Shown here piece after piece: positions 10,739-28,782 of a DNA stretch of 43,385 nucleotides. Positions within the stretch are counted from its first letter, which is position 1. Every line of letters starts with the position of its first letter. The stretch lies in UHGV virus genome UHGV-0217911. The stretch is one strand, 5' to 3'. Source of the DNA: a virus. The position numbers and the translations under genes are program-made. The notes under the pieces are model-generated. The model was given only the letters and a program-made list of their open reading frames with translations. It was not told where the DNA came from and searched no databases.

Positions 10739-11272
10739 ATGTTAAGTGAAAACGCAAAAGATATCGAAGGATATGAAGGACTGTACGCCATCACTAATGA
10801 TGGTAGAGTTTACTCGCATTCAAGAGTAAATTTGAGGGGACGTCTTATTAAGGGTAGGTGGCTGAAGCATAATCATAACGTAAATGGATATAAGTATGTG
10901 TGTTTATATAAGGATGGCGTAAAAAAGAACATACTAATACATAAGCTTGTTGCATCTCACTTTGTTGGTGGATTTGCTGAAGGGTTACAGGTAAATCATA
11001 TAGATGGTGATAAATACAATAATAACTATCTAAATCTTGAATGGGTTACTCCATCAGGAAACATCTCACACTCATATGGATTGGAGTCGAGAGGTAATGT
11101 AAAAGGAGAAAGGAATGGTAATTCTAAAATATCTAATGATGATGTCATAAAGATAAAAGAAATGGTTGCCAATGGATTTCCTCAGTGTGAAGTTGCTAAA
11201 TTATTTGGAATTCACAATTCAAAGGTTAGTAGAATTGTAAATGGCAAGGCATGGAGGCATGTTAATGGCTGA
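10739..11272 (+). CDS. HNH homing-type endonuclease (NUMOD4-like N-terminus, HNH core, C-terminal HTH)
   Basis: [17 protein letters not shown] motif, a NHIDGDK...N...LEWVT HNH core, and a C-terminal HTH ([17 protein letters not shown]). The gene is AT-rich and inserted between gp10 and the needle. Confidence 0.8.
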
Positions 11273-22199: not shown

Positions 22200-22245
22200 A
22201 TTCGTAATGCGAAGGTCGTAGGTTCGACTCCTATTATCGGCACCA
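22200..22245 (+). repeat. 46-bp copy of the tRNA-Thr (thrW-type) 3' end from anticodon loop to CCA; attR core of the P22-like prophage
   Basis: ATTCGTAATGCGAAGGTCGTAGGTTCGACTCCTATTATCGGCACCA carries the CGT anticodon loop, T-arm and acceptor 3' strand, but the 5' half of the tRNA is absent. Confidence 0.8.
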
Positions 22246-22849
22246 TTAAGAAAATCAATAACTTAGCTTAACTTCTCTAAGAAATTGTATCTTCTGTTAT
22301 CACTTACAAACGCCTATACGTTGTTATGGGCTTTGGTAGTGTAACACGTATGGGCGAGTAGTTCACAGGCTCAACCTCGTAACAAGTTCCTTTGAAGCTG
22401 GAAGACGTGCCACCGTCTCTAAACCTTCTACCAAAACTCTTAGCAAGATGTTCCACACCTGGCGCGGTGTCCAATGATGCTACACGTCGTGAGACGTTGC
22501 AGAGGATAAACAGGCTAAATGATGGGAAGAGTTTTAAGTGCATAGTGGATTAAAGCCCACCTCTTCAAAACCTAACTTGATCGGGAAAGAATCAAGCTCT
22601 AGCACGGTTTCGTCCACCGGAGTACAACGGGTGCCTGATAAGAGAAGAACTGCTAAGACTTCATAGCTTTTGTGAAAAAGCCCTTTTTAGTGGATACGCC
22701 TACGGCGCTTATTTTTTGGTATAACCATCAAAGGCGCTTTATGGCTCCTATTGTCTTGAAAATGTATCTTTACTTGTATTGTGTTTTATGCGTAGCCTTC
22801 CTGTGTAGTATGTAACTTGTTAATTTTCATATGAATACAGAGGCACACG

Positions 22850-23002
22850 ATGAAAAACATTGCAGCTATCAAACGTAATAACCGCAAGATTCACGCTCGT
22901 AAGTTCCTGTCTACGCCAGAAGGAAAAGCCTGGCTAGAGCGTAAACAGCGAGAGAACGAAGAAAGAAAACTCCTTAGTGAGTTGAAATGGCTTAAGGATT
23001 GA
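22850..23002 (+). CDS. Possible small basic protein (50 aa)
   Basis: ATG with GAGG 7 nt upstream; product MKNIAAIKRNNRKIHARKFLSTPEGKAWLERKQRENEERKLLSELKWLKD. Below the ORF-track length cutoff. Confidence 0.3.
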   Translation: MKNIAAIKRNNRKIHARKFLSTPEGKAWLERKQRENEERKLLSELKWLKD

Positions 23003-23567
23003 ATCACCAGTAGGCGCATAACACATCCAGCGATCAAAGATGTGTTTATGCACCTGATAGTGAAATTATTAAAGTCGTTTAGTTAACATCGCCATTGCTT
23101 GAGCAATAATTGCAACAGCGTCCATCTCTTCACTGGAAGCGATGCAAATGCGGTAACTAATAGCCACAACGAATACATCAATAACGAGAAAGTGAATAGT
23201 GTGAAGATGTTTTGAAAGTAAATGCATAACTTCCTCCGGTTTTACGATAGGAAGATTAGAACATGCATTAAATGATGTTACAAGGGTGGTAATTTACCCT
23301 AATAGTCTACTATTCACCTCAATCTACGTCAACCAATATTTGATGTAGATTTAATTTTCTTTTAAAAACAATGTGTTGCAATTTGTTGAATTTTGGGGTT
23401 AGGTTGTTTTTTGAACGTTTTCATCAAGTGTAAAGATACGTTTAGCCTTCATAGTGAGTTCAGTTACTGTCTTTTTCTCTGAAATCGGCGCAGACGTGAT
23501 CAATGTTTAACGCGAAGATCAGCGGCGTCAGGTCCACGCAGCGACAATTCTCAAATATCAGGAGGCA

Positions 23568-24125
23568 TTACGCTTCCTGCTCTTTCTTGATACGTTGCAC
23601 CGTCTGTGTGCTGACACTGAAATCTTTTGCTACGCTCCGAATTGATCCACCATTCGCGAGAGCGGCAACAATTCCCGCTCGATCAATTGCTTTTCCATTA
23701 CCACGTTTTGCTATACGTCCAGCGGCCTTAGCTGCGGCGATCCCCTCACGCTGCCGCTCAAGCATCATTTCACGTTCCATTTGTGCCACTGCTGCAAGCA
23801 CTGTGAGCATCATATTCCCTGCGGGAGAGTTCTTCCCTGTCTTAAAGTCTTCTTTATGGAAATGCACAGACACGCCGCGCTCTGTTAATTGCTCAACCGT
23901 TGCCAGTAGGTCGGCTGTATTACGGCAAAGTCGATCAATGCTGTGAACATGCAAAACATCACCTTCACGCACATAGTTCATCATTGCCTCAAACTGTGGG
24001 CGCTGGGTATTCTTGCCTGACGCTTTATCTTCAAAGACTTTATCAAGAGTTACTCCAGCTAATTGACGGTCTGTGTTTTGTTGGACAGTCGATACCCTAA
24101 TGTATCCAATATTAGCCATTTTCAT
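23568..24125 (-). CDS. Serine recombinase (resolvase/invertase family)
   Basis: 185 aa; N-terminal catalytic domain IGYIRVSTVQQNTDRQ with the active-site serine, and a C-terminal HTH (GGSIRSVAKDFSVSTQTVQRI). Confidence 0.85.
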   Translation of the reverse strand: MKMANIGYIRVSTVQQNTDRQLAGVTLDKVFEDKASGKNTQRPQFEAMMNYVREGDVLHVHSIDRLCRNTADLLATVEQLTERGVSVHFHKEDFKTGKNSPAGNMMLTVLAAVAQMEREMMLERQREGIAAAKAAGRIAKRGNGKAIDRAGIVAALANGGSIRSVAKDFSVSTQTVQRIKKEQEA

Positions 24126-24644
24126 TTTCCTTCTGTGTTGATTTGTGTGTAGTGATTATTGATCGTGTTGATTAGGTGTGTAAAGGACTTTTTTCACTAC
24201 GAAATTCGAAGGTTTTTAGTGTGGTGATTTAGCCTGCTTTATCACTACACGTCTTGCATGAGAATCATGTAGTTACGTTTTGGTAAAATTAGCAAGCTAT
24301 TAAATAGTGTGTTTATTTTGAAAAAATAATTTTTTGTTGCATTAAAGAAACTTGTTCGACAAATGATAGAACGTTTATTGAGCAACAATTTTGCAGTGAT
24401 GCGCTATATGCCGCATTACACAAGGCACAGCGAAAGTGATGTAAAAGTGAAGAAAGCTAACATTGCACTTTTAAGCTACTTTTCATTGAATTTTTACGTA
24501 GGAATTACACAGGGATTAATCATCAATTACATTGAATTTAAGCCTGTTTTAGATGTTTAATTTTGGTAGCAAGAAACACTTTTAGAAGATCATTGCACAG
24601 ATGTTATGTGATAAATGGATGTAACGGTAGGTCACTGTGAACTA

Positions 24645-24780
24645 CCCCCACAGAATTCTGTTATCCTTAACTTTTAAAGAAATATGCACCCTAACAGAAA
24701 ACTGTTACCCCAACCCTAACAGAATTATGTTAGACACCCCCACAGAAAACTGTTAGCCACCCCTACAGAATTTTGTTACC
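24645..24780. repeat. Five iterons (1 + 4 tandem, about 22-23 bp period), each containing the dyad AACAG-N4-CTGTT
   Basis: ACAGAA cores at 24650, 24694, 24719, 24742 and 24765; consensus CCCYWACAGAAWWYTGTTA, followed by an AT-rich stretch. Confidence 0.7.
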
Positions 24781-25742
24781 TATTAGATCAACTATCAAAC
24801 TACAATTAAATTATCTTTTATAAATTCTTTTATCTTTAAAGAATAATTAAGGGATACCCGTTAGGGAGTCTTCGACTATCCCTTAATCTATTGGCATTCG
24901 CCAGAACCTTGCACAAGTTAGAGTGTTAGTCGTTAGACTGCTTGTCATAACACATAGTTTTTTGTTTGTTGATGTTAGTTAGTAGATCTATGTTCGCTAA
25001 TGCCGCTCACAACGAATATGTAATCTACTATGTGCAAATAGCCTACGGCTTGCGTAAGGCTAAATAGTCTTGCGCTGTGCGCAGAACGATAATTAACTAA
25101 CTACCATCTAACGATTGAAATTTACTTGTGCAATAACCTGAGCGTAAGCGAATGGTTGTTAGTGTCTATGCGCTGTGCGCTTCAATAGTTCCATTGATGA
25201 GGCTTACGCCAATCTAACGATCATCAATCTATTTAAGAGAAAATCTATTGTGCAATACTCTGACGAGTGCAATAACCTTGTGTGCTACGCGTTAGCGATG
25301 TTAGCACACAGACAACAACCAACAACAAACAAAAAAGAAAGAATGGTTTTAGTAGTTGAAGGTTAAATAAGTTTCTACCGCTTAAATCAAGCCGTAGGCG
25401 AGCTAAACGTATATAAGGTAGGGAAACACTTAGCGGTAATAGATTAGCTCGTTATAGAGCTTCTGAGAGCTTTGCAGGTATTTTATAAGGTGTTTGAAAT
25501 CAGAGTTTATCTATCATCATCTTTCCATCATCTAACAAATACAAAATAAGCCCCTTAAACAAGCCTCTGACGAGATAAATAGCCTCTACATAAGGGAATG
25601 TCTTGTTTTTATCAAAACCTCGTCAGAATGCGATTGAGAGCGTTTTAGACAATAGTGGAGAATTGTACCAGATAAGATAGCACAAAAAGATAAGAAAAAT
25701 TATAAGAAATTGAAAAAGATCGTATTTTTTATGAAAGGGGGG

Positions 25743-25771
25743 TTGACAAAAGCCTCCATATGTAGTAAAGT
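25743..25771 (+). promoter_or_regulatory. Sigma70-like promoter candidate (TTGACA-17 bp-TAAAGT) for the downstream four-gene module
   Basis: Consensus -35 TTGACA with 17-bp spacing to a TAnnnT -10, about 120 bp upstream of the first ORF. Confidence 0.35.
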
Positions 25772-25891
25772 AAATGTGAGGGGTAAGAAAAGCATCTCCC
25801 CCATCTAAATAATCAAATCACAATACACTGCACTTTGAGCCGTCAGGCTGCAAGGTGTGTTTTTCTTTTATTTGAATAAGGAATTACAAAA

Positions 25892-26074
25892 ATGAAATGG
25901 TTTACACCAAATGACATTGTTTCTGCGTATCTCGCTGGTGAGATGACCCGCTACCAGGTTCGCCAGAATCGTAATACAGCCCGTCGCCGTGGCTACCCAG
26001 AGCGTGAAAAATGCTTTGACGACGCACTAAAAATTATTGATGAACTGCGTAAGGCAGAAGCAGAGAAAGAATAA
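25892..26074 (+). CDS. Small hypothetical protein (60 aa)
   Basis: ORF with AAGGAA 8 nt upstream; first gene of a tightly packed module. Confidence 0.45.
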   Translation: MKWFTPNDIVSAYLAGEMTRYQVRQNRNTARRRGYPEREKCFDDALKIIDELRKAEAEKE

Positions 26075-26095
26075 TAACAGGAGAAGGAGAAAACT

Positions 26096-26266
26096 ATGAG
26101 CGAAACTACAGAAAAGAAAAGACAACCACGCACTTGCTTTCATATTCCTGATGAAGTATTTCAGGTGTTGTTTAAAGAAGCCAGAAGTAAACGTATCACT
26201 GTTACAGATTACATTCTTGATATGTTGAAAAGAGAGGCTGAAACACTCTCAAACAAAAGCAAGTGA
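26096..26266 (+). CDS. Small ribbon-helix-helix-like DNA-binding protein (56 aa)
   Basis: GGAGAAGGAG SD; product MSETTEKKRQPRTCFHIPDEVFQVLFKEARSKRITVTDYILDMLKREAE has a beta-strand/helix/helix arrangement typical of CopG/Arc-type RHH proteins. Below the track cutoff. Confidence 0.5.
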   Translation: MSETTEKKRQPRTCFHIPDEVFQVLFKEARSKRITVTDYILDMLKREAETLSNKSK

Positions 26267-26319
26267 TTTTTATCACCATAGTAGCGCCGTAGAGCGTGAT
26301 TACATCAAGGAGATTTTTA

Positions 26320-26880
26320 ATGATTAATGAAGAACAATTTGTAAAAGTTCCTATGTGGATTCTAAAAATAAGCCAAGTAAACGGGCATAAATTTACAGAT
26401 AGTGCTAAAAACCTTTACTGCTATTTGAGAGGGTTTGATCGTGCATTTCCCTCTTACGCTAAGATAGGCGATGTTTTTGGCATAACACCAAGAGCAGCAG
26501 AAGAAAGGGTTAAGAAATTGCTCGAAATGGGATTAATTATAAAAGATGCACGACCAGGAAGCTCTAACCTTTATCGAGTGCTTGATATTCCAAAAGGAGA
26601 ATCATCACTACCTGATCCTTCTGAGAAAGAAAACGAATCTAATGAAATATTGAATGTTTCAGAAATCATCGTTGAAGAAGAAATACAGGAATCAGAGTTC
26701 CCTGAGCGGCCCGAAATTTTTACTTGGCTTCTTTCCCTTGATAAGAAGAAACCACCGCACGAAGAAACAGAAGACTACGAAGCATTAGAGCGTTATCGTG
26801 ATGAAGTGCTGACGCTCAAGACACCTTTTAACATCGTATTGAATATGATTAATGATGCATTACAAGGAGAAGCCGCATAA
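26320..26880 (+). CDS. Winged-HTH protein resembling phage/plasmid replication initiator N-terminal domains
   Basis: AAGGAG SD before the ATG at 26320. N-terminal NLYCYLRGFDRAFPSYAKIGDVFGITPRAAEERVKKLLEMGLI is a wHTH pattern seen in Rep/replisome-organizer proteins; the C-terminus is acidic. Confidence 0.55.
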   Translation: MINEEQFVKVPMWILKISQVNGHKFTDSAKNLYCYLRGFDRAFPSYAKIGDVFGITPRAAEERVKKLLEMGLIIKDARPGSSNLYRVLDIPKGESSLPDPSEKENESNEILNVSEIIVEEEIQESEFPERPEIFTWLLSLDKKKPPHEETEDYEALERYRDEVLTLKTPFNIVLNMINDALQGEAA

Positions 26881-27188
26881 TGGAAGAAGATATTAGCAAT
26901 GCAATGGAACAACTTTTAGATCTGACTATCTCACTACAAACAAGAATAAATCAAGCCTATTCAGATTTATGCGATTACACGCTCTCTCAATGCGTTATTA
27001 GCTTAATGAAGGTGAATGTAAGCCTTGACGATTTTATCTCTCTGGTGAGCGATTTAGAGCTAATTGAGGACGATGCCAAGATGTGCACTCAAACCATCAC
27101 AGACACCGCCAGCACGTTAAAGGCTGCAAGTGAAGAGATTCAGCAATTAGTAGATGATTTAGCAAAAAGTGCTATTTTCTCTAAATGA
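26880..27188 (+). CDS. Acidic hypothetical protein (102 aa)
   Basis: ORF with start overlapping the upstream stop (translational coupling). Confidence 0.5.
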   Translation: MEEDISNAMEQLLDLTISLQTRINQAYSDLCDYTLSQCVISLMKVNVSLDDFISLVSDLELIEDDAKMCTQTITDTASTLKAASEEIQQLVDDLAKSAIFSK

Positions 27189-27460
27189 TAATGAAAATTA
27201 TTTGCATTTATAACGATTTCATTATATAATAATATTAGGGGTAGATAAAAAGGTTTTGACTGGTGTTAATCCTTCTACTGTCATAAATCCCTGCATATGG
27301 AAGGTGATAGCCTCAAAGGTTGAGTGGCATTAACCTCTAACAAATATTACCTTCCATCCCCTCAAGAAGTTTTAGAATAATCATAACTCCCTCTTTGATT
27401 GTTGATTGTTTCTACGTTGTGTTGATGAATGTTGTTAGGCATTGTGCTTAATTTTGATAA

Positions 27461-27508
27461 AAGCGGGTAGGTGTTATCTCCTTGCCCTTCCCGCTTTTAT
27501 TTTTCATC
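27461..27508 (+). terminator. Terminator-like hairpin plus T-run
   Basis: AAAAGCGGG ... CCCGCTTTT stem with TATTTTT tail. Confidence 0.4.
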
Positions 27509-28182
27509 TATGCTTATCCTAAAGCTCCTTATTTTGTCCGAAAACATTAAAGAGCCTTACACTGATAGTTATATTTTATAACTATTTACTAACATCATTA
27601 AACTCTTATTTAATGACGGAAGTTAGTAACAGAATAATCTATTAAGTTGTTGTCAAAAACAATCATCTGCATAGCGTTAGCCGCAAGCAGAGAGAGTTTA
27701 GCTAAGAATTGTGCAATAACCTTTGGAAATATTGATAGCAAAACGGGTTTTATAGACTGCAAATCTATAATCTTTGGTTGTAAAAACGCTTTTTCTGAAA
27801 CGGTAGATTATTGTTGGTGTAGTTAATCCTATTAAAATTTAATCTGTGAGTAGATGAGAATTGGAATAGTGATTCCTTAAAGCCTTACTTTGTTGCATCC
27901 ACAGCAAAAACAGGCAGCGGTTAGCCACCGCATCCAGAATATCAGATCTTAGTGATTCCAGGGGCAACTCCTAAGAGCCTTCCTTCTAAGATCTGATATT
28001 CATCCTTTAAGCATATCATCAAGTATATTTAAAAAGTGTATTTGCTGATATGTTTAATCCTCTTATAGTTTAACTTATCAATTATGTAATTGCCCGCACG
28101 TTAAAGCCCCTTTGCTGGTCAGAATTAACCTCTTACGGCATTGGGGCTTTTTATTTGTCTGGCACTAACAGGAACGTTATTT

Positions 28183-28380
28183 ATGAAACAAGAAATGATT
28201 ATCAGCAAAGACGGGGAAACGATGATTGTTAGTGATGAAAACCTCATTAAGGTTGCCGCACTGTTGGGAGTTACTCCCGAAAGTCTTCGTTCTACCACTG
28301 CCCAATTATTTAAATCGGCTGATGCGGTTAGTCTTGCTGATGCCCTTAAATCTAAAATTAAACAACTGAAAGGAAAATAA
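28183..28380 (+). CDS. Small hypothetical protein (65 aa), first gene of a six-gene operon
   Basis: ATG at 28183 with AGGA upstream; the track ORF start at 28141 lies inside an upstream hairpin. Confidence 0.5.
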   Translation: MKQEMIISKDGETMIVSDENLIKVAALLGVTPESLRSTTAQLFKSADAVSLADALKSKIKQLKGK

Positions 28381-28384
28381 TCTT

Positions 28385-28768
28385 ATGGCTAACCCATATG
28401 GAAAATTAAAAGCAGTGAATGCGGATAATTCCCGTTCACGCTGTAAGGTAGTAGCTTACGCTGCTGATCCAGTGCTGCAAGATCGCCTCGTCAAACTGGC
28501 TTCACCTCTCACTGACGATCTTATTGTCGGGGCTTTGCTGAAAGCCGATGGCACCAAAGCAACAACTGCATCTGATATTGCTCACGTAGTAGTTGAACCG
28601 GCTTATGAAGGACAGGAAAGCGTAGTGGTTGCACATCCTACTTTCGTTATTCTGGCTGAAGATGGGATTGAATTTAACAGCATGGAAAAGGCAAGTGTTA
28701 TTGCAAAACTGCAATCTCTCGGCTTTGTAATTGCTGGTTATGAAGAACTTGCGATCCCTACGACTTAA
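28385..28768 (+). CDS. Hypothetical protein (127 aa)
   Basis: Tightly packed behind the preceding gene (4-bp gap); no motif recognized. Confidence 0.6.
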   Translation: MANPYGKLKAVNADNSRSRCKVVAYAADPVLQDRLVKLASPLTDDLIVGALLKADGTKATTASDIAHVVVEPAYEGQESVVVAHPTFVILAEDGIEFNSMEKASVIAKLQSLGFVIAGYEELAIPTT

Positions 28769-28782
28769 CAAGGAAAATAATA

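Follow-up and report, generated by a model that had tools for sequence, protein, structure and literature searches.

A putative iteron-specific initiator in the early operon of a satellite-like Escherichia coli island, and its counterparts in nucleases of phAPEC8-type phages

Introduction

What is the role of the four small genes located at positions 25743-27188 of UHGV virus genome UHGV-0217911? The window referred to throughout is the whole of this stretch of viral DNA, 43,385 nucleotides (nt) long and read on one strand from 5' to 3'. A first, sequence-only reading had described four open reading frames (ORFs) and a promoter-like site, both of which are present where it placed them, and had proposed that they could serve replication or maintenance, regulation, or a toxin-antitoxin-like function. 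The replication cassette is the best supported of these three possibilities, and the toxin-antitoxin idea is unsupported. The deletion, the leader hairpin and the phage connection described below had escaped that reading. Sequence comparisons and structural models make it fairly probable that the module centres on an iteron-specific, RepA_N-like origin-binding protein, encoded by an early operon in a satellite-like island with links to phAPEC8-type phages, and that nucleases of these phages copy its DNA-binding domain. In this model a 12.1-kb island would behave like a satellite of the Stephanstirmvirinae (phAPEC8 group), and the module would be its early operon, serving replication and regulation. 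A comparable arrangement is known from the PLE satellites of Vibrio cholerae, which possess a RepA protein of the RepA_N family and an iteron origin and are countered by the nuclease Odn of phage ICP1 (PMC7145576, PMC8263062).

The features of the module are as follows:

25743-25771, plus strand: sigma-70-like promoter, TTGACA-17-TAAAGT; -35 and placement conserved in eight copies
25830-25869, plus strand: leader hairpin and U-run, candidate terminator or attenuator, from its fold energy and invariant stem
25892-26074, plus strand: 60-amino-acid (aa) basic protein, isoelectric point (pI) 8.9, its centre rich in arginine, found in all island copies examined
26096-26266, plus strand: 56-aa protein, predicted ribbon-helix-helix (RHH) fold from AlphaFold2 and Foldseek, allele 1 of three
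26320-26880, plus strand: 186-aa fusion ORF, type A winged-helix residues 1-152 followed by the last 34 residues of a 67-aa gene
26880-27188, plus strand: 102-aa acidic helical protein, pI 4.05, specific to the island backbone

The length of the 186-aa ORF is counted from an ATG; an alternative GTG at 26296 would give 194 aa. This protein is acidic (pI 4.75), as is the 102-aa protein.

Winged-helix domain types and their iterons

Homologues of the winged-helix protein have interchangeable N-terminal domains, followed by a conserved acidic linker and tail. Five domain types can be distinguished: A in this window, B in P0044, C in P0061, D in P0053 and E in P0124. About 1.6 kb upstream of the winged-helix gene lie arrays of 22-24-nt semi-palindromic repeats (iterons), of which there are likewise five types:

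Type A repeat: CACCCnnACAGAAnnnTGTTA
Type B repeat: ACCTAGGAAATGAGTTCCTA
Type C repeat: GGTAGGTCACTGTGAGCTAG
Type D repeat: GGTAGTAACGAnnCGTTACAT
Type E repeat: TACCCCTATCAAnnTTGATA

Repeat type and domain type correspond one to one in 14/14 island copies examined, which represent non-independent lineages, and type A occurs on two different backbones. On a single backbone, the islands L015 (type A) and L018 (type E) show 96-100% identity outside two divergent patches; one of these is the iteron array, the other the RHH gene together with the binding domain.

In the window, the following elements lie upstream of the operon:

24616-24648, plus strand: vestigial iterons, half type D and one type C, TGGATGTAACGGTAGGTCACTGTGAACTA, upstream of the type A array
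24643-24781, plus strand: five type A iterons CACCCnnACAGAAnnnTGTTAnCC, candidate origin-binding sites, with a 44-nt first interval, then 23-25 nt
24782-24850, no strand assigned: A+T-rich stretch, candidate DNA-unwinding element, 85.5% A+T, directly after the last iteron
25097-25278, plus strand: conserved repeated motifs, CTAACTACCATCTAACGAT twice, TTGTGCAATAACC and two variants

The five type A repeats measure 23-24 nt and have an internal dyad; the one type C core match is at 24630. The richest 60 nt of the 1.77-kb intergenic region are at 24790, with 86.7% A+T against 59% for the island. Cognate semi-palindromic iterons with an adjacent A+T-rich region, the arrangement expected for a RepA_N-type initiator, are thus found in the sequence. 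The binding domain would recognise its cognate iterons beside this A+T-rich stretch, and the array, some 1.6 kb upstream of the gene, would constitute the island origin.

Two other identities for the type A repeats were considered and rejected. They are not sites of the island's serine recombinase, since an identical recombinase protein accession occurs in a type A copy and in a type D copy. Neither are they LexA boxes, which have the arrangement CTGT-N8-ACAG; the iteron dyad is ACAG-N-CTGT.

The number of type C iterons is variable, with about ten perfect 22-nt copies in L007 (5260-5501) versus three in L009. The CTAACTACCATCTAACGAT and TTGTGCAATAACC motifs occupy the same places in backbone-1 islands regardless of iteron type. 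In the window, TTGTGCAATAACC and its variants are found at 25126, 25248 and 25265 and again at 27709, between two operons, and backbone 2 has the form TTGTGTAATTAC. A phage promoter element was rejected as an explanation of TTGTGCAATAACC, the 12-mer being absent from phage Mt1B1_P17.

Fold, family and C-terminal tail of the winged-helix protein

An AlphaFold2 model of the 186-aa protein, run with a 31-sequence alignment, comprises a winged helix at residues 6-91 (pLDDT 75-87), an acidic linker predicted to be disordered at residues 92-150 (19 Asp/Glu versus 6 Lys/Arg) and two low-confidence helices derived from the 67-aa gene. In structure the winged helix may be closest to the N-terminal domains of RepA_N and DnaD proteins, with that of PLE RepA (4RO3) among the top matches, and the margin is small. 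The winged-helix domain also matches PHROG families of replication initiators (E = 1e-8 to 1e-4). Searches of PDB sequences, with single proteins and with an RHH profile, gave nothing significant. PLE RepA itself is without BLASTP similarity to staphylococcal RepA proteins (PMC7145576).

The motif [ILT]PF forms the C-terminal end of 94/110 full-length homologues (e.g. IYDSLPF, VYEDFDIPF and ERFGTPF). It resembles the conserved tip of E. coli SSB, DDDIPF, which is a contact for many replication and repair proteins (PMC5872125). The intact protein would combine a domain like those of RepA_N and the DnaD N-terminus, a disordered acidic linker and a tail of the form ...D-x-[IL]-P-F, and we infer that this acidic, SSB-like tail could recruit replication factors of the host or of a helper phage. 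The fusion protein of the window lacks the ...IPF tail.

Pairing between domains and repeats demonstrates specificity, not replication, and the protein could instead regulate transcription of the island, as an immunity repressor or as an activator, in which case the iterons would be an operator array and the phage nucleases described below would use the same domains to find and destroy the island. Such a role would agree with the RefSeq labels of the winged-helix protein ('transcriptional regulator' or 'LexA family') and with the frequency of master repressors in satellites. However, the array does not lie over a recognisable promoter: the operon promoter is about 960 nt downstream of it, and the start codon of the recombinase gene is about 520 nt away. 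It also abuts the most A+T-rich stretch of the region. Moreover, wherever a PHROG match has an assigned function (11/11 cases), it is that of a replication initiator or loader, and an SSB-like acidic tail, present in the 94/110 homologues mentioned above, is not a repressor feature. A regulator is thus considered unlikely.

A packaging-specificity factor of the small-terminase type is a further alternative. The protein would then bind pac-type repeats on the island and pass them to the large terminase of the helper through its C-terminal tail. Satellites often redirect packaging with a small terminase of their own, this island has capsid-like genes and no terminase, and the layout of the protein is like that of lambda Nu1-type proteins, in which an N-terminal winged helix is followed by a linker and a short C-terminal interaction tail. 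Against this, no terminase family was matched in Pfam, PHROGs or NCBIfam, the protein has no oligomerisation domain (residues 92-150 being predicted as disordered), its structural neighbours are initiators rather than terminases, and the A+T-rich stretch beside the repeats better fits an origin. Packaging specificity seems very unlikely on these grounds, and an origin-binding protein remains the preferred interpretation.

Phage nucleases carrying island-type domains

The binding domain of the window has a close counterpart in a virulent phage:

26279-26631, plus strand: DNA-binding domain segment, residues 1-104 and about 40 nt upstream, shared with phage gene QNJ49226

Over this segment the window is 99.2% identical, at the DNA level, to the QNJ49226 gene of Mt1B1_P17, a virulent phage of the genus Phapecoctavirus. 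The 328-aa phage protein consists of a type A domain, a type B domain and a C-terminal MUG113/T5orf172 domain of the GIY-YIG clan. Four Stephanstirmvirinae phages (Mt1B1_P17, BI-EHEC, inny and muut) have this succession of two winged helices and a nuclease. Domain B and the nuclease are kept among them and the first domain varies, being of type A in BI-EHEC (92% identical), type D in inny (88%) and type E in muut. Identity between the phage binding domains and those of island types A, B, D and E is 85-100%. The fifth type was in fact predicted from muut and then found: proteins 97-100% identical to it are encoded at the corresponding place in islands of the same family, and the islands with the muut-type domain carry the fifth iteron type.

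Scores for the nuclease domain are borderline: MUG113 gives 22.5 bits for muut, 22.3 for inny and 21.2 for Mt1B1_P17, at a cut-off of 22.3. A homologous T5-like endonuclease passes T5orf172 (20.3 versus 20), and by tblastn the C-terminal domain is homologous to endonucleases that are annotated, in other phages, as homing or GIY-YIG enzymes. With this domain as query, a word-indexed search returned nothing; the domain is supported by Pfam and tblastn. Most of 86 related phage records, with flanks 91-96% identical, lack the nuclease gene. An iteron array was found neither in the 150 kb of Mt1B1_P17 nor in any of 50,697 phage records.

In ICP1, the N-terminal domain of Odn is 42% identical to PLE RepA, and cutting requires the PLE iterons (PMC8263062). 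The E. coli phage genes resemble this system in their architecture: they have a T5orf172/GIY-YIG-type domain, at borderline scores, preceded by N-terminal domains of the island types, whose candidate target is absent from the phage. Some phages may counter the islands with a nuclease that carries copied island DNA-binding domains, as ICP1 Odn acts against PLE.

A broader proposal can be put forward only tentatively. Widespread and previously undescribed satellite-like islands of E. coli would parasitise, or interfere with, virulent phAPEC8-type phages by means of a RepA_N-like initiator bearing an SSB-tail mimic with which it would recruit proteins of the replisome or primosome; the initiator domain and the iterons would be swapped together, time and again, to escape nucleases; and the phages would stack two captured domains in each nuclease against several island types. 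No described E. coli satellite of Stephanstirmvirinae or rV5-type phages was found in the open-access literature.

Several observations weigh against an origin-binding function and against the satellite model that includes it. Pfam RepA_N (PF06970) has no match at E <= 1 for the window protein and none at E <= 0.1 for its homologues; given, in addition, the small structural margin, membership of the RepA_N family is treated as unproven. The type A protein also stays below the cut-off of Pfam HTH_36 (19.9 versus 25 bits). The resemblance to the SSB tail is a motif match alone. Neither DnaA boxes nor IHF sites were found near the iterons, and the island encodes no helicase, primase or polymerase. 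The copies sampled being non-independent, no probability can be assigned to the one-to-one pairing. It is also conceivable that the phage genes encode ordinary homing endonucleases and have binding domains in common with the island for another reason. Finally, no free 12-kb island contig was found in IMG/VR, an absence which neither supports nor refutes satellite status.

The SSB protein of Mt1B1_P17 (QNJ49289, L030 5862-6794) contains the sequence ...PPMDFDDDIPF followed by 15 extra residues, APIGLQYGRNFLHCF, so that the motif is internal in this protein and not C-terminal.

A deletion fusion in the window copy

The 186-aa ORF is not a native protein. The operon is usually longer: the genes for the 60-aa protein and a small RHH protein are followed by those for a winged-helix protein (189-226 aa) and for proteins of 85-92, 127-136, 67 and 99-102 aa. 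The intact operon would be composed of the 60-aa protein, the RHH regulator, the winged-helix protein, proteins of 89-92 aa and 127-136 aa, and backbone-specific cargo. Compared with the island of FDAARGOS_1259 (L017), the window is 100% identical over the aligned 2.1 kb, apart from a difference of one nucleotide within a G-run that precedes the -35 hexamer. Base-by-base comparison shows that it is without the 1,021 bp between two 13-nt copies of AAGAAACAGAAGA:

26762-26774, plus strand: deletion junction, sole remaining copy of the 13-nt AAGAAACAGAAGA, from comparison with FDAARGOS_1259 (L017)

The deletion between these repeats interrupted the winged-helix protein after residue 152, and the reading frame now continues into the final 34 residues of the 67-aa protein. 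The winged-helix protein thereby lost its native C-terminal tail with the ...IPF end. Also removed were the 89-aa and 127-aa genes, both of which are conserved in the two island backbones (E = 6e-9 and 1e-15). An 'acidic tail' had been attributed to the 186-aa protein from the sequence; the protein is acidic, although its last 34 residues are foreign and come from the neighbouring 67-aa gene. In annotation, the window gene should be read as a deletion fusion.

From its sequence, the window copy probably still binds its iterons and is probably defective for replication. The possibility that it is an inert remnant, no longer acting for island or cell, is suggested by the loss of a conserved tail and two conserved genes and by the rarity of the arrangement, since at most 33/5,426 genomes are collinear across the junction, which makes it a minority form. 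Nevertheless, the fusion is in frame and the sequence otherwise intact, and the arrangement recurs at 99.9-100% identity in at least 13 complete genomes, whose sources are dogs, pigs, humans, a whale and wastewater. The binding domain and iterons are also intact, so that iteron occupancy is possible and could, for example, shield the DNA against a phage nuclease. An inert remnant is accordingly held to be improbable; the proposal concerns this copy only and is compatible with an initiator role for the family.

Expression of the operon

The TTGACA-17-TAAAGT site had been called a consensus-like promoter that drives the module. By match alone it is not above chance, with eight promoter-type sites in 5 kb versus 15.2 +/- 4.1 in shuffles. 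The call is credited because the site is conserved among copies and not for its match score: the -35 hexamer and its location are kept across eight island copies, with TAAAGT or AATAAT as the -10. Between promoter and first gene, a hairpin with a 12-13-bp stem, GCACUUUGAGCC-GUCA-GGCUGCAAGGUGU, is followed by a T-run (U-run in the transcript). The leader folds at -29.4 kcal/mol (z = -2.65), and across seven copies the loop varies and the stem is invariant. It looks like an intrinsic terminator or attenuator, so that expression probably requires read-through and the operon, despite its conserved promoter, is not simply promoter-driven. The RHH protein and the leader terminator might together hold down expression until a signal from the phage.

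The description of the four genes as translationally coupled was overstated. Gaps of 21 nt and 53 nt separate the 60-aa from the 56-aa gene and the 56-aa from the 186-aa gene; overlap, of 1 nt (TAATG), is restricted to the last pair, 186/102 aa. Nor do the short ORFs escape standard cutoffs, as had been expected, for RefSeq annotation covers all four module genes.

The small proteins and the toxin-antitoxin question

The proposed RHH nature of the 56-aa protein holds at the level of fold. Its AlphaFold2 model (pLDDT 89) has an extended N-terminus and then two helices; the RHH strand, which arises only in the dimer, is not visible in this monomer model. Nearly all top Foldseek matches are RHH proteins (target-normalised TM 0.7-0.8), and the matches include Arc, CopG, AmrZ, NikA, the copy-control protein ORF56 and the antitoxins Rv0298, KacA, AtaR and VapB12. 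Matches by sequence stay below threshold: no curated RHH sequence family was significant, an Arc-like PHROG reached E = 0.011, and a PDB profile search found none. For RHH allele 3, the match to a FitA-like RHH protein is weak (E = 0.089).

In copG-repB operons an RHH gene lies directly ahead of the initiator gene. The 56-aa gene stands just ahead of the initiator-like gene in the same manner, and the most economical reading, by analogy and from sequence and model, is that the 56-aa protein probably regulates transcription of the operon. The three alleles of the RHH gene do not track iteron type, promoter variant or 60-aa variant. Allele 3 is a 42-aa ORF, MNINFDSATYNALLNRAKAEGKSIPKLVNELLITVLTKEELN, missed by gene callers; it lies at the RHH-gene position of type B islands (L004 6877-7005).

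RHH is a common antitoxin fold, and the antitoxins among the structural matches would be consistent with a toxin-antitoxin or abortive-infection module made of the 60-aa and 56-aa proteins, with the latter as antitoxin. However, no toxin or defence-system family was matched by either protein in Pfam, PHROGs, PADLOC or NCBIfam. The three RHH alleles combine freely with the 60-aa variants, which gives no sign of a co-evolving pair, and the 60-aa protein is present in every copy examined and conserved although its RHH partner is swapped. As the place of the RHH gene also recalls copG-repB operons, such a module is judged highly improbable, and control of the operon is preferred for the 56-aa protein.

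The 102-aa protein belongs to its island backbone. Among 1.84 billion representatives, an exhaustive search found nothing beyond its own cluster, fragments and a single relative of 64% identity; at the corresponding position backbone 2 has an unrelated protein of 112 aa. None of the 60-, 56-, 102-, 89-, 128- and 67-aa proteins had a significant family match in Pfam, PHROGs, PADLOC or NCBIfam.

The island and its ties to Stephanstirmvirinae phages

The module sits in a 12.1-kb island at 22222-34346, integrated at tRNA-Thr, with a 26-nt direct repeat of the tRNA-Thr 3' end at its two ends (22222-22247 and 34321-34346). Its outer features are:

22222-22247, plus strand: left attachment repeat, GTTCGACTCCTATTATCGGCACCATT, tRNA-Thr 3' end, repeated at 34321-34346
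28183-32831, plus strand: structural-type operon for proteins of 65 aa, 127 aa, 343 aa (capsid-E-like), 65 aa, 633 aa (tape-measure-like) and 218 aa (Dit-like)
32906-34270, minus strand: tyrosine integrase, with Pfam Phage_integrase, DUF6538 and SAM-like domains
34321-34346, plus strand: right attachment repeat, 26-nt direct repeat

The order within the island is a small serine recombinase gene, 1.77 kb of non-coding DNA, the module, about 1 kb of non-coding DNA and the capsid-E-like, tape-measure-like and Dit-like operon. In strain D8 the island directly adjoins tRNA-Thr. Module-related DNA is found in 707/5,426 complete E. coli genomes (about 13%). The gene order is the same in copies at tRNA-Thr and tRNA-Gly, at one other chromosomal site and on an IncF plasmid, which indicates that the island is a mobile element. 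An integrase, attachment sites and copies at several sites, as a satellite would possess, are thus all present. In IMG/VR the capsid-like gene is present only within larger prophage-type contigs, a scan of species-representative genomes with the capsid-like protein found nothing, and Rfam gave nothing credible within the island.

Specific links to one group of possible helpers are provided by the tape-measure-like and Dit-like proteins, in addition to the shared binding domains. The 633-aa protein matches a tape-measure PHROG (1e-71), and its phage homologues are confined to 134 Stephanstirmvirinae-type records (32-34% identity, E = 1e-52 to 1e-57). The likeness to phAPEC8-type tape measures lies in the C-terminal 400 residues of the island protein. 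The Dit-like protein is 61-65% identical to the product of the gene beside the tape-measure gene in Stephanstirmvirinae phages, and its homologues are found mainly in records of this group; for the capsid-E-like protein, tblastn gave no phage match. These likenesses, in the region 28783-32831 of the window, suggest that the island may alter or hijack the tails of its helper.

The serine recombinase (185 aa, 23568-24125, minus strand), at the left of the island, is of the invertase/resolvase type (Pfam Resolvase 1e-38, PHROG DNA invertase 5e-62). In copy L006 a 183-aa recombinase gene was called on the strand opposite to the module.

Positions 1 to about 22000, immediately left of the island, carry the late genes of a P22-like prophage (terminase, portal, coat, ejection proteins and tailspike), with an HNH/NUMOD4 endonuclease gene (10739-11272) inserted among the tail genes. 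To the right are the vat autotransporter toxin gene and a MarR-type neighbour, so that prophage, island and vat region stand in tandem at the tRNA-Thr (thrW) locus.

Comparison with known systems

The closest parallel is with PLE and ICP1. Both PLE and the present element are chromosomal islands with an initiator-like protein and without helicase or primase; the N-terminal domain of this protein, which is of the RepA_N family in PLE, may resemble RepA_N structurally here (4RO3 being among the top matches, by a small margin); in both, semi-palindromic iterons lie in non-coding DNA away from the gene, and initiator specificity and iterons are replaced as a unit. In both, too, some isolates of a lytic phage have a chimera of an initiator DNA-binding domain and a T5orf172-type nuclease. 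The present system differs in its E. coli host and its Stephanstirmvirinae myoviruses. Unlike PLE RepA, the island protein has no sequence match to Pfam RepA_N, and it ends in an SSB-like tail. The island uses a tyrosine integrase at tRNA genes, whereas PLE uses a large serine recombinase. The E. coli phage proteins differ from Odn in having two tandem binding domains, the first swapped among A, D and E, and phage and island domains are 85-100% identical, compared with 42% for Odn and RepA.

The pMV158-type copG-repB operons and ORF56 of Sulfolobus pRN1 share with the module a small RHH gene directly upstream of the initiator, in one operon, and CopG and ORF56 are among the structural matches of the 56-aa protein. 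In contrast to copG-repB, the initiator here would be a winged-helix iteron binder and not a rolling-circle nuclease, and the RHH alleles do not track promoter variants.

With initiators and loaders of the lambda O and DnaD types (PHROGs 270, 678, 8540 and 391; HTH_36) the winged-helix domain has sequence similarity (E = 1e-8 to 1e-4), and by analogy iteron binding would be its expected mode of action. The similarity is limited to some 95 binding-domain residues; the C-terminal domains of O and DnaD are absent from the island protein, and the iterons are outside the gene.

Finally, like the known E. coli satellites (P4-like elements, PICI and capsid-forming PICI), the element is a small island that is integrated at a tRNA gene and has an integrase and structural genes of phage type. 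It differs from them in that no primase-helicase, AlpA, Psu/Sid/Delta, portal, protease or small terminase was found among the island proteins scanned, its structural genes being capsid-E-like, tape-measure-like and Dit-like, and in that its phage links are to virulent 150-kb myoviruses and not to temperate helpers.

If this interpretation is correct, conflict of the PLE-ICP1 type would not be peculiar to Vibrio, and a second, independent and more modular instance would be available in a model organism. The opposing phages of the phAPEC8 group include isolates from clinical and veterinary E. coli, and whether the islands limit phage host range would become testable. With five matched domain and iteron pairs at hand, the same would apply to the co-evolution of initiator and origin under nuclease pressure, and also to replisome recruitment by an initiator without helicase or primase, for which the SSB-tail mimic is a concrete hypothesis. 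The labels 'hypothetical', 'LexA family' and 'transporter' carried by these genes are uninformative or misleading.

Other elements between the operons

The DNA between the module and the structural operon contains several further signals. A sigma-70-like promoter, TTTGCA-18-TATAAT, lies downstream of the module at 27201-27230 (plus strand). After it, ATGGAAGGT at 27297 pairs with ACCTTCCAT at 27349 in a long-range stem, and an intrinsic terminator, AAAGCGGG...CCCGCTTTTATTTTT, is located at about 27459-27505 (plus strand). The segment 27201-27505 could encode a small RNA of about 270 nt, for which Rfam gave no match.

A hairpin with a T-run, AAAGCCCC...GGGGCTTTTTATTT, at 28104-28157 (plus strand) lies shortly ahead of the structural operon, whose first ORF has its ATG at 28183. 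As this is a second leader element resembling a terminator, both island operons may depend on antitermination. At 27905-28001, the non-coding DNA contains a minus-strand terminator-like hairpin (27931 to 27914) and, next to it, a perfect inverted repeat of 16 nt (27937-27952/27986-28001).

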